From: a virus
Lineage: Duplodnaviria; Heunggongvirae; Uroviricota; Caudoviricetes
Virus record (IMG/VR): IMGVR_UViG_2690316273_000016
Strand: one strand, 5' to 3'
Length of the DNA stretch: 7,929 bases
The notes under the pieces are model-generated. The model was not told the origin of the DNA. It ran no database searches and saw only the letters and a program-made list of their open reading frames with translations. Positions 1,885 through 6,065 of the stretch are shown here, piece by piece. The stretch's first letter is position 1, and each line of letters opens with the position of its first letter. The position numbers and the translations under genes were made by a program.

Positions 1885-1922
1885 CTATTGCCGGATAACA
1901 AGCAAAACAAAGGCGACCGCAA
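1885..1922 (-). terminator. Putative intrinsic terminator for leftward transcription
   Basis: Stem GGCGACC (1902-1908) / GGTCGCC (1916-1922), loop gcaaaag. On the minus strand it is followed by TTTGTTTTGCTTG (complement of 1885-1901). No T-tract follows on the plus strand. Confidence 0.4.
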
Positions 1923-1998
1923 AAGGGTCGCCAGTGGGAACAAGGGAAAACAAAAGCATCGCCAACAATGCCACATTTGCGGCTGGTGGGCAATGCAA

Positions 1999-2187
1999 TC
2001 AGTCTGGTTCAGTTCGTTGCCATACCTGCAATGAGCGCTTTTCCCTGTACTCTTTAAGGAATTGCTCAAGGGCAAAAGCACATGGCGCGAATCTTTCTGA
2101 TTCATGCTCTATCTTTCTGCGCCGTCTTTTCCGTGCCGGTGATAATGTTTTGGTCAATTCTTTATCGGTCATTGTGTTGTCCTGCAT
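1999..2187 (-). CDS. Hypothetical small basic protein (57-62 aa), possible second gene of the leftward transcript
   Basis: Minus-strand ORF from the track; translation (…TDKELTKTLSPARKRRRRKIEHESERFAPCAFALEQFLKEYREKR…) looks more protein-like than the overlapping plus frame. Internal ATG at 2172 has an AGGA 7 nt upstream; the first ATG at 2187 has no clear SD. Lies between the upstream regulator gene and the 1885-1922 terminator. Weak support. Confidence 0.3.
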   Translation of the reverse strand: MQDNTMTDKELTKTLSPARKRRRRKIEHESERFAPCAFALEQFLKEYREKRSLQVWQRTEPD

Positions 2188-2229: not shown

Positions 2230-2409
2230 TTATTCCTGCTCTTTGGCCTTGCGACGCTGGCGGTATTCAACTTCTCGCTTTAATGCTGCTGTTACAAACT
2301 GCCCTGTACTTTCACCAGGCATTTTTACCGCCTCAACATTGTTCATAACTTCATGCGGAACCCTTGCCGCAACTGTTTGTGATTTTGCGTTTACTGCTTT
2401 TGTTGCCAT
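2230..2409 (-). CDS. Small putative DNA-binding regulator (59 aa), possibly ribbon-helix-helix; repressor-like
   Basis: Absent from the ORF track (below 60 aa). Hand translation of the minus strand from ATG (complement of 2407-2409) to TAA (complement of 2230-2232): MATKAVNAKSQTVAARVPHEVMNNVEAVKMPGESTGQFVTAALKREVEYRQRRKAKEQE. SD AAGGGG sits 8 nt upstream. Putative strand-helix-GxS/T turn-helix layout is reminiscent of Arc/CopG RHH proteins. Divergent from a promoter region with three palindromic operators. Confidence 0.5.
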   Translation of the reverse strand: MATKAVNAKSQTVAARVPHEVMNNVEAVKMPGESTGQFVTAALKREVEYRQRRKAKEQE

Positions 2410-2438
2410 GTTGTGTACCCCTTACAAAAAACAAATGC

Positions 2439-2511
2439 AGTATGCAGGAAAAAAAATAAGTGTTCAACACTTGACGTGTTTAACACCAGAGCTTAAATTG
2501 GTGTTCAACAC
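2439..2511. promoter_or_regulatory. Divergent promoter/operator switch: three palindromic operators GTGTT(C/T)AACAC over back-to-back sigma70-like promoters
   Basis: Operators at 2460-2470 (GTGTTCAACAC), 2476-2486 (GTGTTTAACAC) and 2501-2511 (GTGTTCAACAC, flanked g…c). Rightward promoter: -35 TTGACG 2471-2476, 17-bp spacer, -10 TAAATT 2494-2499. Leftward promoter on the minus strand: -35 TTGAAC (complement of 2462-2467), 17-bp spacer, -10 CATACT (complement of 2439-2444). Operators overlap both -35 elements and the rightward start site. Confidence 0.55.
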
Positions 2512-2608
2512 CTTGCTGATGCAAGGTGCAGAAACGACGAAACCCGGCAGTGCGCTAACACTAACCGGGCTTCTAACCACCAACGATAGAAAGCGTATCG
2601 AGGTAGCT

Positions 2609-2812
2609 ATGAGAAATTATACCAGACACCCGCAAGGGCGGGACTCGTACAACCTGAATAAATACATCTGGCGTTTTATCGCCCTGAGCACGGCACAACC
2701 GCGCGTGATTACCATTGAGGCCACCAGCGAACAGGAAGCGCGTCAGCAATCTCCTGATGGCTGCGTGATGGTATTCGCTGCCCGTATTCGCCAGGGGGAA
2801 CACCATGATTAA
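2609..2812 (+). CDS. Hypothetical small protein (67 aa), first gene of the rightward replication operon
   Basis: ATG at 2609 with GAGG 5-6 nt upstream; stop TAA 2810-2812 overlaps the next start (ATGATTAA). It is the only protein-like part of the 373-aa stop-free frame. An in-frame ATG at 2519 is possible but lacks an SD. Confidence 0.55.
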   Translation: MRNYTRHPQGRDSYNLNKYIWRFIALSTAQPRVITIEATSEQEARQQSPDGCVMVFAARIRQGEHHD

Positions 2813-3014
2813 CCTGTCACTTACCGACCTTAACCGCGTTCAGTTTCGTGAGAAATTTACCGGGCAGCTACTGGTCAATGTGGATAAAGGTCGCGTGGTG
2901 TGTAATTACCACCTGCCAGATGAAGCCATTGTCGCAACAAGGGAATCATTACAGGAACTCGCAGAACGTGCCGGAATGATTAATGCGAATATTCAGGGGG
3001 TGAGACATGCATAA
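2805..3014 (+). CDS. Hypothetical small protein (69 aa), paralog of the next gene
   Basis: ATG 2805 preceded by GGGG; stop overlaps the next start. Shares a motif block with the downstream ORF (TGQLLVNVDKGRVVCNYHL versus TGRVLVYLEKGRVKCQCRL). Confidence 0.65.
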   Translation: MINLSLTDLNRVQFREKFTGQLLVNVDKGRVVCNYHLPDEAIVATRESLQELAERAGMINANIQGVRHA

Positions 3015-3219
3015 TCATGAATCGCACTTACCTGTAGTGCTGAATGTGCCGTCAGATTATACGGGGCGCGTACTGGTGTATCTGGAAAAAGGCCGGGTTA
3101 AATGTCAGTGCCGTTTAATGGAAAACGAATTTATCAGCACTCTTGCGGGATTTTCTGAAATGCTCACTAAATCGGGTGTTAGTGCAGACCAGCTACGCGG
3201 GGGCGATTATGCGAAATAA
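3007..3219 (+). CDS. Hypothetical small protein (70 aa), paralog of the previous gene
   Basis: ATG 3007 six nt after GGGGG; overlaps the previous stop (ATGcaTAA). Shares the TG--LV---KGRV-C block with 2805-3014. Confidence 0.65.
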   Translation: MHNHESHLPVVLNVPSDYTGRVLVYLEKGRVKCQCRLMENEFISTLAGFSEMLTKSGVSADQLRGGDYAK

Positions 3220-3433: not shown

Positions 3434-3721
3434 ATGAAAAAGAAAAATTCTGGCTTTACTGCCAGCGGCCCCGCTCGGCCTGAAATCCGCCCCGGCGATA
3501 TTTTCCGGGATAACTATGGCGGCACGGTAACGATAAAAGGCGTGGCAGAACGGCGCATCACTTACCGCCGTGATGGCTACGAATATGACTGCGTGATGCC
3601 TGTTTATCAGTTCCGGCGTGATTTCACGCTGGTGGGCCATCGTAAAGCCGTAAATCAGAAACGTGCAGCAAGTCATATCCGCAAAATTCGTGAAATGCTG
3701 GTCGCAGGGGGTAAAAAATGA
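3434..3721 (+). CDS. Hypothetical basic protein (95 aa)
   Basis: ATG 3434 with GGAG 9 nt upstream; stop TGA 3719-3721 overlaps the primase ATG at 3718 (ATGA). Protein-like composition, basic C-terminus. Confidence 0.6.
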   Translation: MKKKNSGFTASGPARPEIRPGDIFRDNYGGTVTIKGVAERRITYRRDGYEYDCVMPVYQFRRDFTLVGHRKAVNQKRAASHIRKIREMLVAGGKK

Positions 3722-5532
3722 AACTGGCACCGAACGTAAAACAGCAGTCACGCGGCATAAAACACAAAGAAACAGAAGTCATTATTTTTGCGGGTAGTGA
3801 TGCCTGGTCACACGCAAAACAATGGCAGGAACATGACGCGCGTATGGCCGGAGATAATGAGCCTCCTGTGTGGCTTGGGGAGCAGCAGTTATCCGAACTG
3901 GATAAGCTGCAAATTGTGCCGGAAGGCAGAAAATCCGTGCGCATATTCAGGGCCGGATATCTTGCGCCAGTAATGATAAAGGCGATTGGTCAGAAGCTGG
4001 CGGCGGCAGGCGTACAGGATGCAAATTTTTATCCTGAGGGTATGCACGGTCAGGAGGTGCAGAACTGGCGCGGATATCTGGCCCGTGAGCGCCAGAATCT
4101 TTCTGATGGTCTGGTGATTCAGCTTCCTGTTAAGAAAAAAACAGAAGACAGCGCCGCACCACTGGCGCTTAACCAGATGGGAGCAAGCCAGCGCGGCGAA
4201 GTTCTCCTGGCACATTATGGCGGTGAACTGGCGATTCATGCCGACTCTGACACTGTTCACCATTACAACGGCGTTGTATGGGAGCCGATTCAGGATAAAG
4301 AGTTACAGCGTGCTATGGCGCAGATTTTCATTGATGCGGAGATCAGCTATTCGCAGAACGCCATTAAATCGGCGGTCGATACCATGAAGTTAAGTTTGCC
4401 TGTAATGGGGAATACAGCCCGTAACCTGATTGGATTCAGTAACGGGGTATTTGATACCAGAACAGGTAATTTTCGGGAGCATAACAAAAACGACTGGTTG
4501 TTAATTGCCAGTGAATTACCTTTCAGCCCACCAGCAGAGGGGGAAACGCTGGCAACACATGCGCCGAATTTCTGGAAGTGGTTACGCTGCTCGGTGGCAG
4601 AGAATGACCGCAAGACGGATCGCGTGCTGGCTGCATTATTCATGGTGCTGGCGAACCGGTACGACTGGCAGTTATTCATTGAGGTAACAGGTCCAGGGGG
4701 AAGTGGTAAAAGCGTGATGGCGGAGATTTGCACTATGCTGGCGGGTAAGGCCAACACAGTATCGGCAAGCATGAAGGCGCTGGAAGATGCAAGGGAACGC
4801 GCGTTAGTGGTTGGCTTTTCGCTGATTATCATGCCGGATATGACCCGCTACGCTGGTGATGGCGCAGGAATTAAGGCCATTACAGGCGGTGACAAGGTGG
4901 CAATCGACCCGAAGCATAAAGCCCCCTACTCAACACGCATTCAGGCGGTCGTGCTGGCGGTGAACAATAACGCCATGTCATTCAGTGACCGCAGCGGGGG
5001 GATCTCACGTCGTCGGGTGATATTCAATTTTTCGGAGGTTGTACCGGAGAACGAGCGCGACCCCATGCTGGCAGAAAAAATAGAAGGAGAGCTGGCGGTT
5101 GTGATTCGCCATCTGCTTACTCGTTTTTCTGACCAGGACGAAGCTAAACGCCTGCTGTATGAGCAGCAGAAATCAGAAGAAGCTCTGGTGATAAAACGCG
5201 AGGGCGATTCGCTGGTGGACTTCTGTGGCTATCTCATGTCGTCGGTAATGTGTGATGGTCTGTTAGTGGGTAATGCCGAAATTATTCCGTTCAGTCCGCG
5301 CAGGTATCTTTATCACGCCTATCTGGCATATATGAGGGCACACGGATTCGGTAAACCTGTAACACTGACGCGCTTCGGTAAAGATATGCCGGGGGCAATG
5401 GCGGAATATGGCAGGGAGTATATAAAACGGAAAACGAAGCACGGTTTGCGTTCAAATGTGACACTGACAGAGGATTCAGAAGACTGTATGCCATCATGTG
5501 CATCGGTCACAAATGACGACAGCAAAAATTAA
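3718..5532 (+). CDS. P4-family phage/plasmid primase C-terminal domain protein (D5-like SF3 NTPase/helicase); element replication initiator
   Basis: 604-aa ORF. Walker A GPGGSGKS (…FIEVTGPGGSGKSVMAEI…). Flanking blocks (NGVFDTRTGNFREH…, …ITGGDKVAIDPKHKAPYS…, …RRRVIFNFSEVVPENERDPMLAEKI…) match the conserved layout of P4-family primase C-terminal / D5_N-type proteins. SD GGGGG precedes the start. Confidence 0.88.
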   Translation: MKLAPNVKQQSRGIKHKETEVIIFAGSDAWSHAKQWQEHDARMAGDNEPPVWLGEQQLSELDKLQIVPEGRKSVRIFRAGYLAPVMIKAIGQKLAAAGVQDANFYPEGMHGQEVQNWRGYLARERQNLSDGLVIQLPVKKKTEDSAAPLALNQMGASQRGEVLLAHYGGELAIHADSDTVHHYNGVVWEPIQDKELQRAMAQIFIDAEISYSQNAIKSAVDTMKLSLPVMGNTARNLIGFSNGVFDTRTGNFREHNKNDWLLIASELPFSPPAEGETLATHAPNFWKWLRCSVAENDRKTDRVLAALFMVLANRYDWQLFIEVTGPGGSGKSVMAEICTMLAGKANTVSASMKALEDARERALVVGFSLIIMPDMTRYAGDGAGIKAITGGDKVAIDPKHKAPYSTRIQAVVLAVNNNAMSFSDRSGGISRRRVIFNFSEVVPENERDPMLAEKIEGELAVVIRHLLTRFSDQDEAKRLLYEQQKSEEALVIKREGDSLVDFCGYLMSSVMCDGLLVGNAEIIPFSPRRYLYHAYLAYMRAHGFGKPVTLTRFGKDMPGAMAEYGREYIKRKTKHGLRSNVTLTEDSEDCMPSCASVTNDDSKN

Positions 5533-5544
5533 ACTTATGGAATA

Positions 5545-5775
5545 ACTGTTCACCACTGTTCACCCTGTTATAAATATCTTTTATATCAGTACATTATAGG
5601 GTGAACAGTTATTTGTGAACTGTTCACCAAACTATTCACTGTTCACCTTTTTGATTATTTATTGAGCTTTAAGGGTGAACAGTGGTGAACAGTTGGTGAA
5701 TAGTTTTTGTGAAACTGTTCACCCCTTAACATTATGAATAAAAAGGGAAAATCTCAAAAGGTGAACAGGTGAAGG
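5545..5775. repeat. Iteron array in both orientations (CTGTTCACC / GGTGAACAG) with AT-rich spacers; putative replication origin
   Basis: Forward TGTTCACC at 5547-5554, 5557-5564 (two tandem 10-bp ACTGTTCACC units), 5621-5628, 5640-5647, 5716-5723, plus variant CTATTCACT at 5632-5640. Reverse GGTGAACAG at 5600-5608, 5674-5682, 5684-5692, 5760-5768, variant GGTGAATAG at 5695-5703, half-site GTGAAC at 5615-5620. Lies directly 3' of the primase gene. Confidence 0.6.
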
Positions 5776-5819
5776 GTTAAAATGCAAAAATTTTATTTTA
5801 TTGCTGTGAGGTAAAGCCT

Positions 5820-6065
5820 GTGACAACGAAGCACGCAAAAAAACCACAATCTCACGCCCTTGATTTGACAGAACACTGGCTGAGGGTGGCGATAAAAATC
5901 ATCGACCGCAACGCGGGAGAAGGGTACGCAAAAGCACATCCCGAACTGATAAGCGCATTCATGACCACGGCGGCAGCAAACTTTGCCACGCTGACAGAAC
6001 GGGAGATTGCCGAAGCGGAACAGGTGACAACCATCAACGTTAAAACCGGAGAGCAGACAGCATGA
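5820..6065 (+). CDS. Hypothetical protein (81 aa), first gene of the accessory operon
   Basis: GTG start at 5820, GAGGT (5808-5812) 7 nt upstream; stop TGA 6063-6065 overlaps the ssb ATG at 6062 (ATGA). No family recognised by eye. Confidence 0.5.
   Translation: MTTKHAKKPQSHALDLTEHWLRVAIKIIDRNAGEGYAKAHPELISAFMTTAAANFATLTEREIAEAEQVTTINVKTGEQTA

Follow-up and report, generated by a model that had tools for sequence, protein, structure and literature searches.

What keeps phage-inducible chromosomal islands (PICIs) of Gram-negative bacteria silent? The question is raised directly by the stretch of DNA analysed here (IMG/VR record IMGVR_UViG_2690316273_000016; 7,929 nucleotides in full, hereafter the window), which is itself a Gram-negative PICI. 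In the searchable papers the role of repressor has not yet been assigned to any protein of these islands. The genes of the window are arranged in the order int, alpA, two small genes on the minus strand and then a rightward operon, and one of the two small genes, a 59-codon frame at 2230-2409, stands divergent from that operon. Comparison of this locus with its relatives makes it probable that this gene encodes a small dimeric ribbon-helix-helix (RHH) DNA-binding protein, which would act as the maintenance repressor of the phage-satellite island.

Identification and conservation of the 59-codon gene

The gene and its translation signal are the following:

2230..2409, minus strand: 59-amino-acid (aa) YlcI/YnfO-family gene, predicted RHH repressor (from the listing of open reading frames (ORFs) at a 30-aa minimum)
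2418..2423, minus strand: Shine-Dalgarno sequence AAGGGG, separated from the ATG by the 8-nt spacer TACACAAC (read directly from the sequence)

An earlier note on this DNA, made from its letters alone, had read by hand an ATG, an AAGGGG at 8-nt spacing and 59 codons on the minus strand. The sequence and the ORF listing agree with it throughout, placing the ATG at 2409-2407 and giving MATKAVNAKSQTVAARVPHEVMNNVEAVKMPGESTGQFVTAALKREVEYRQRRKAKEQE as the protein. The note's explanation for the absence of the gene from its six-frame track was likewise right, because at 59 aa the frame falls just under the 60-aa cutoff. Its claim that the gene had been missed, however, holds for that track only, since RefSeq already annotates the gene as a "YlcI/YnfO family protein" (e.g. 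WP_000201462.1 in the E. coli locus L001). Nor do related elements carry the stops or frameshifts which the note had looked to as a sign against it: homologues of 57-64 aa hold frame and length in Escherichia, Salmonella, Klebsiella, Pectobacterium, Serratia, Proteus, Xenorhabdus and other genera. Over the first 50 codons the window and the copy from Edwardsiella hoshinae (L003) differ by 12 synonymous and no non-synonymous changes, and comparisons with more distant copies yield ratios of non-synonymous to synonymous substitution (dN/dS) of 0.17-0.48. Judged by these patterns of substitution, the 59-codon gene is real and under purifying selection.

The protein belongs to the YlcI/YnfO family, with NCBIfam model NF041551 recovering it at 59.7 bits against a cutoff of 30 (E 2.1e-16) and protein residues 9-50 aligning to model positions 1-42 of 42; it is also matched by phrog_949, a family of unknown function, at 4.7e-22. 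The family is narrow, as only 80 cluster-50 representatives were recovered at E<=1e-3 from 1.84e9 proteins, and 74 homologues of the protein were found among 5.8e9 clustered proteins. YlcI and YnfO are prophage genes of E. coli K-12 of unknown function, after which the family is named. The name thus carries no function, and the satellite-borne subfamily considered here is set apart by coming with a fixed module of operators, promoters and antisense RNA. A tblastn search with this subfamily against 50,697 deposited phage genomes gave no match. The stretch 2230-2620 matches 1326 of 5426 complete E. coli genomes (about a quarter), 644 of them at >=80% cover. The model island EcCICFT073 has the same small gene in the same position (C_RS30120, WP_000190587.1) and carries the gene together with the operators and the antisense RNA. 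Gene, operators and antisense RNA likewise occur together in an O157:H7 island lying between cspD and clpS and in capsid-forming PICIs.

The operator array and the two promoters

The 199-bp intergenic region contains three copies of GTGTTnAACAC, at 2460-2470, 2476-2486 and 2501-2511, which amount to three exact GTGTTNAACAC copies in 52 bp. If one mismatch is allowed, the whole window has four matches to the operator against 0.29 expected, a count reached in none of 200 shuffles. The sites and the promoters which they cover are:

2460..2470, no strand assigned: operator O3 (predicted), GTGTTCAACAC; overlaps the P_L -35 and abuts the P_R -35 from upstream
2476..2486, no strand assigned: operator O2 (predicted), GTGTTTAACAC; within the P_R spacer, from the last base of the -35
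2501..2511, no strand assigned: operator O1 (predicted), GTGTTCAACAC; begins 2 nt past the P_R -10 and covers the expected start site
2471..2499, plus strand: rightward promoter P_R; TTGACG (2471-2476), 17 nt, TAAATT (2494-2499)
2439..2467, minus strand: inferred leftward promoter P_L; -35 TTGAAC (2467-2462), 17-nt spacer, -10 CATACT (2444-2439)

P_R is the sole promoter recovered in a consensus scan, and its TTGACG, seen as a CGTCAA motif on the other strand, is kept in related loci. P_L was read by eye and agrees with the consensus at 8 of 12 positions, which is under the threshold of the scan; a TATACT or CATACT -10 is found at its position in related loci too, and we infer that the TTGAAC/CATACT pair is the 59-aa gene's own promoter. 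The placement of the sites on both P_R and P_L is that expected for repression of the rightward operon combined with autoregulation.

The fourth match, GTGTTAAGCAC at 1450-1460 on the plus strand, is one mismatch away from the operator and lies exactly on the GTG start of alpA. It was rejected as a target because the cognate 11-mer never occurs outside the intergenic region in 27 related loci, and it is probably a chance match.

Co-variation of the sites with the protein

The locus was compared with 35 loci taken from one-genome-per-species contigs, along with further loci for chosen homologues. The layout is kept in nearly all of them: 11-bp sites at about -102 and -77 from the ATG flank the conserved CGTCAA, and a third site lies in the relatives at about -32 from the ATG, directly after the TATACT -10. 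In each 6-kb locus the cognate 11-mer is found nowhere else. The outer GTG...CAC arms of the sites are mostly kept, and the inner five bases vary jointly with protein residues 10-17, defining about 12 classes, among them the following (protein residues 10-19, then site):

SQT[VLI]AARVPH: GTGTTGAACAC (window, Edwardsiella, Pectobacterium, Kosakonia)
SKKLEARVPH or SRKLEARVPH: GTGTCAGCCAC (Xenorhabdus, Pectobacterium, a metagenome-assembled genome of Enterobacteriaceae, E. coli)
SQSLKSRVPH or SQALKARVPH: GTGTGG(C/T)CCAC (GTGTGGCCCAC; includes EcCICFT073)
SKRFDVRVPH: GTGTC(C/G)GACAC
SQKTSVRIPH: GTG(A/G)(C/T)GGACAC
SQK[VLI]Q[AT]RAPH: site core TGGAnTnCA
SQKMSARVPH: CTGGCACCCAG
SQSVTARIAH: GTGTCTTACAC
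SQALRARVPH: GTGGTCTACAC

This correspondence was also used in the forward direction. For the E. coli protein P0044, which has SKKLEARVPH in common with Xenorhabdus but a different helix A, the site GTGTCAGCCAC was predicted from the strand residues before its loci were retrieved, and three such sites were found. The co-variation can be taken only as a proxy for sequence-specific operator binding, which would be mediated by the residues of the predicted strand.

In four loci (L026, L028, L030 and L032) the otherwise invariant N-terminus MATKAVNAKS is replaced by one of the M(T/S)(R)DN(V/I)NNKS type, and the outer arms of their sites tend to be CTG...CAG in place of GTG...CAC, a hint that the outer bases are read by the N-terminal arm. 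In the Edwardsiella hoshinae locus (L003, 2733-3174), i.e. in another genus, the protein is identical to that of the window at 58 of 58 positions and the flanking genes are unrelated; therefore, the repressor-operator module moves as a unit from island to island and between genera.

Exchange of a specificity cassette and the candidate binders

A natural exchange narrows down which protein could recognize the sites. Protein P0027, found in the E. coli loci L038 and L039, is that of the window from residue 32 onwards and differs from it before that residue, and the nucleotide identity of the surrounding DNA changes at corresponding points:

2317..2507, no strand assigned: specificity cassette comprising O1-O3, both promoters, the 5' untranslated region and codons 1-31; 55% identity to L038, 56% to L039
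2508-2664: region of the antisense RNA, with the beginning of the icd-like gene; 92% identity to L038, 88% to L039
2231-2316: codons 32-59; 95% identity to L038, 98% to L039

The N-terminal half of the 59-aa protein is the only coding sequence in the exchanged block, and the sites have changed together with it.

Other candidate proteins of the island were considered as binders and set aside, as their identity does not follow that of the sites. The AlpA of the window is 92% identical to that of the E. coli island L040 and 97% identical to that of CFT073, and the three have three different sites; conversely, the same sites are found in L038 and L039 at 26% AlpA identity, and in L040 and L042 at 22%. 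The family of the Icd-like protein carries the label 'transcriptional repressor' in PHROG. This protein is near-identical in the window and in L038, yet the sites differ; conversely, L038 and L039 have identical sites but unlike first rightward genes, and the same holds for L040 and L042. The replication protein found next to the same module also varies by locus, being of the D5/Pox_D5, DUF927 or AAA_25 type.

Is the protein a ribbon-helix-helix domain?

The residues invariant in 40 close homologues are R16, H19, G32-E33-S34, Q37-F38, E46 and R50, and residues 11-15 vary. AlphaFold2 (AF2), when provided with the homologue alignment, gave a model with a predicted local distance difference test (pLDDT) score of 80.5, in which helices spanning residues 19-28 and 35-58 reach a pLDDT of 90-94. 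The protein thus has the two helices of the RHH fold and the tight G-x-S/T turn capping helix B, formed by the invariant G32-E33-S34. Structural similarity to solved RHH proteins was found, with Foldseek against the PDB being uninformative for so short a model. Distant members of the family show weak, sub-threshold matches to Pfam models of the RHH clan (PSK_trans_fac in 5 of them, RHH_1 in 2 and CB_ParB_C in 2, plus TacA1), and one homologue is labelled a CopG-like RHH protein in UniRef. Alignments made with hhalign to Arc and to a PF01402-verified CopG alignment both fall in the expected register, with TVAARV placed on RLTITL and GESTGQFVTAAL on GLSKSAMISVAL. Searches of PDB sequences with the protein and with family profiles recovered nothing significant; the best match of the family profile was 3no7_A (E 0.28, not significant), which we take to be the RHH ParB of pCXC100.

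Several observations weigh against the protein being an RHH repressor that reads these sites. The hhalign probabilities are low (7.9% for Arc, 3.5% for CopG), and a Pfam scan of the window protein recovered no RHH family, only a spurious Med10 match; no curated RHH profile matches the window protein above threshold. In the AF2 monomer residues 1-18 are of low confidence, and there is no strand at 10-18, which is partly helical. This uncertainty could be explained by the strand being expected to form only in the dimer. The AF2 model of P0145, a natural tandem relative, has a poor first repeat and no ribbon, with a predicted template-modelling score (pTM) of 0.39. The loci L030 and L032 share the same residues 10-19 (SQKIQARAPH), and their sites differ at several positions (GTGGAGTACAC versus CTGGATTCCAG), while the loci L005 and L006 have a homologue (SQTLAARVPH; upstream of 3001 and 344, respectively) without the three-site array. 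Finally, alpA of EcCICFT073 is induced by the helper phage, and over-expressing AlpA is by itself enough to set off replication of the island (PMC6092414), from which it follows that AlpA would bypass or override RHH repression. As to L005 and L006, their context differs and a single degenerate site, CTGTCGAACAG, follows the -10.

Taking both sides together, an RHH assignment of the 59-aa protein is likely, and we hold it with considerable confidence; the protein is not demonstrably a homologue of Arc, Mnt or CopG. Of the earlier note's two proposals on function, the RHH-like pattern is moderately supported, by the AF2 helices, the G32-E33-S34 turn and the weak Pfam matches of distant relatives. 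The profile searches by which it was to be checked gave no Pfam RHH match, hhalign probabilities of 3.5-8% and sub-threshold matches in distant relatives only. The proposal that the gene sits where the repressor of the switch should be is well supported by the promoter-covering sites, the co-variation in about 35 loci and the cassette swap.

A predicted antisense RNA over the start of the icd-like gene

Between O1 and the ATG of the icd-like gene lies a further, structured element, which is also conserved:

2530..2609, minus strand: two-hairpin antisense RNA ending in a U-run (2538-2529), covering the ribosome-binding site (RBS) and ATG of the icd-like gene
2609..2812, plus strand: Icd-like gene, first of the rightward operon, 67 aa (NCBIfam NF033153, 69.9 bits; annotated in L001)

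Consensus folding of 23 loci with alifold yielded -28.0 kcal/mol and 25 pairs for the minus strand, as against -11.8 kcal/mol and 14 pairs for the plus strand. In the minus-strand structure 94.7% of the cells pair and compensatory changes are seen in 17 of the 25 pairs; none of 500 shuffles reaches any of the observed values, and slid controls pair at about 40%. Many of the pairs are G-U, which would be A-C mismatches on the other strand, and therefore the RNA is to be placed on the minus strand. Ahead of it lies a conserved TAnnnT box at 2621-2616, which in the window is a putative -10, TATAAT, with TG at -15/-14, and the U-run directly follows the second hairpin. The RNA predicted from these features would be about 80 nt long, extend from about 2609 to about 2530 and have complementarity to both the RBS and the AUG of the icd-like gene.

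This element resembles SymR (RF01809), whose model is matched over its full length (1-77), with strand and place agreeing, in the window (32.8 bits) and in the loci L011 (40.4), L014 (36.4) and L010 (32.3). Both are cis-antisense RNAs, and both cover the start codon and RBS of the gene opposite. The scores of 32-40 bits lie far below the gathering score of 61, so that the RNA falls outside the SymR family as defined, and it differs in having the icd-like gene rather than symE as target. An Rfam scan of the window recovered no match to the C4 or isrK immunity RNAs.

Alternative explanations

The operators adjoin the 5' half of the gene, so that the two would be inherited jointly in any event, and binding by the 59-aa protein rests on sequence comparison. 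Accordingly, the repeats might be bound by a host factor or a helper-phage protein, with the small protein serving, for example, as an anti-repressor or adaptor and the co-variation reflecting mere linkage. We regard this as unlikely: a host factor could not track about 12 site sequences within one species, the swapped cassette includes no other coding sequence, and the identity of the sites does not go along with that of AlpA, the Icd-like protein or the replication proteins. Moreover, variability is concentrated at the positions with which an RHH strand reads bases, and the helices and turn are conserved. At a more basic level, the ORF is short, and it could be argued that it is untranslated and that its conservation reflects an RNA or DNA element. 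The purely synonymous changes relative to L003 (12 against none), the frame and length kept in homologues from many genera, and the Shine-Dalgarno sequence at the proper distance leave this hardly any probability.

Two further possibilities accept the RHH fold and assign it another task. The protein might make up a type II toxin-antitoxin pair with the product of the gene at 1999-2187 and be the antitoxin in it, the repeats then being autoregulatory and exerting no rightward control. Such pairs are marked by a conserved toxin gene downstream and a C-terminal toxin-binding extension, and neither is present here. Among loci with the same RHH protein the downstream gene encodes unrelated products of 57, 69, 75, 108 or 126 aa and is absent in L039. 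Only a short basic tail follows the conserved part of helix B, the protein ending 10 residues later, and it is P_R, not the promoter of the gene itself, that carries two of the three sites. With the downstream gene variable or absent, an antitoxin role is to be discounted as quite improbable. Alternatively, the protein could be a centromere-binding or segregation adaptor of the ParG/omega/pCXC100-ParB type, with the repeats as a partition site of the excised island. This is very improbable, as neither the window nor the related loci have a ParA-type ATPase, there are three sites only, placed exactly on promoter elements, and none of the matches comes near significance. The most likely reading of the locus is that of an RHH repressor/operator switch carried by a mobile element.

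Proposed mechanism and its implications

In the repressor/operator switch proposed here, one dimer would occupy each 11-bp GTG-N5-CAC site, inserting its N-terminal strand in the major groove. Occupation of O2, in the P_R spacer, and of O1, at the P_R start site, is predicted to keep the operon silent from the icd-like gene through DUF4222 to the primase. Occupation of O3 would limit P_L and bring about negative autoregulation; this site lies on the P_L -35 in the window and just after the P_L -10 in most relatives. As a second lock, a constitutive antisense RNA of about 80 nt could pair with the first rightward gene's transcript at its RBS and AUG. Relief might come about in more than one way. 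Since alpA and the RHH gene converge, one possible route is for alpA transcription to read through the RHH gene or interfere with it, and a helper-encoded anti-repressor might be another.

A broader proposal can be put forward more tentatively, and with somewhat less than even confidence: YlcI/YnfO-type proteins could be the missing master repressor of Gram-negative PICIs, including EcCICFT073. The exchangeable cassette of N-terminal strand and operators would then define at least 12 'immunity' types, allowing several satellites to coexist per cell, and induction by AlpA would bypass or displace the repressor.

The gene and its family name are already known, as is the RHH guess in the one UniRef label. 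The searchable papers (subscription-only literature being outside the search) assign no function to the 59-aa gene, nor do they describe the array of operators, the classes of strand and operator specificity, the exchanged cassette, the decoupling from AlpA, the module in EcCICFT073 or the antisense RNA. If the protein is indeed a repressor, it offers a concrete and easily testable handle on the silence and induction of widespread gene-transfer elements, and makes the question of what keeps Gram-negative PICIs silent directly testable. In addition, the natural strand/operator classes would then provide a ready data set for the rules of RHH recognition and for orthogonal repressor-operator parts.

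Genomic context and neighboring genes

The remaining features of this part of the island are:

1-1074: integrase (position in the island order)
1450-1638: AlpA (PF05930)
1912..1972, minus strand: two terminator-like hairpins closing the leftward operon, at 1972-1955 and 1932-1912
1999..2187, minus strand: small gene downstream of and co-oriented with the RHH gene (phrog_21027, 1.6e-15; the 57-aa WP_000130015.1 in CFT073)

The rightward operon comprises the Icd-like gene, two phrog_340 genes, DUF4222, a D5-type primase (3718-5532), SSB and ProQ/FinO. The two phrog_340 genes (2805-3014 and 3007-3219, plus strand; E 5e-23 and 4e-20) are adjacent paralogues of unknown function with overlapping start and stop. 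In the E. coli locus L001, which is near-identical to the window, capsid, protease and portal genes come next, indicating that this is a capsid-forming PICI.

The leftward operon appears to consist of the RHH gene and the gene of 57-62 aa at 1999-2187, ending at the two hairpins. For the latter gene the ATG at 2172 is the probable start, which makes it 57 aa long, and its product is a small basic protein; it is annotated as hypothetical in CFT073 and lacks annotation in L001, which has a plus-strand pseudogene fragment instead. In other islands its slot is taken up by unrelated genes of 57-126 aa or is empty, marking it as a variable cargo position. A 373-aa ORF on the plus strand (1691-2812) crosses, in antisense, the small gene, the RHH gene, the operators and the antisense RNA before going on in frame over the icd-like gene. 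It is almost certainly spurious, as a protein of such composition is implausible, three supported features lie antisense to it and RefSeq has only the pseudogene fragment there.

The AT-rich region at 5573-5753, 3' of the primase, has dense direct and inverted GGTGAACAG / CTGTTCACC repeats, which also give rise to false matches to plant microRNAs in Rfam, and looks like an iteron-type replication origin of the island. The int-alpA RNA (RF02996) scores above its gathering score in L004, L008, L010 and L026 (near 5500-6040 on the minus strand of the locus), and was not detected in the window at E<=1. In the E. coli island L040 a second module stands in tandem at 3465-3864. Its gene, likewise Arc-like and of 59 aa (VSTHKNERRGNPPFQFRLDPDLREKMEKAQ...), is preceded by a GGTTAGA-plus-hairpin RNA motif of its own and by palindromic TGTGTATATACACA repeats, which points to duplication or stacking of the module in some satellites.

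Comparison with known systems

CopG and the RHH_1 family (PF01402) differ from the protein in that the Pfam model misses it and the hhalign probability is 3.5%. Among satellites, the natural comparison is with the repressors of Gram-positive islands. The Stl proteins are larger helix-turn-helix proteins, and their fold is therefore unrelated to that of the 59-aa protein, which is also unrelated in size. Like those of Stl and Rpr, the master repressors of the Gram-positive PICIs (Staphylococcus aureus pathogenicity islands, SaPIs), the gene lies beside int and divergent from an excision/replication operon, and its presumed silencing task is the same (PMC6092414). The Gram-negative islands differ in needing an activator, AlpA, as well. 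By position, then, the 59-aa protein would fill the Stl/Rpr slot of the Gram-positive PICIs, with an operator layout that fits and a silencing role that is predicted.

In architecture, the nearest known system would seem to be the immI region of phage P22, in which Mnt and Arc, both tiny RHH repressors, are divergent from P_ant and a second control is added by the sar antisense RNA. Here too a very small predicted RHH repressor is divergent from the promoter that it is predicted to shut off, the operators lie on the -35, -10 and +1 of the controlled promoter as well as on the repressor's own promoter, and a gene further downstream has its RBS overlain by a short predicted cis-antisense RNA. 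The likeness is one of layout and does not extend to recognizable homology with Arc or Mnt, hhalign giving 7.9% against Arc. The island further differs in having three 11-bp GTG-N5-CAC sites as opposed to the single 17- and 21-bp operators of P22, in controlling an operon of the Icd-like gene and satellite replication genes rather than the P22 antirepressor, and in directing its antisense RNA at the first gene of that operon.

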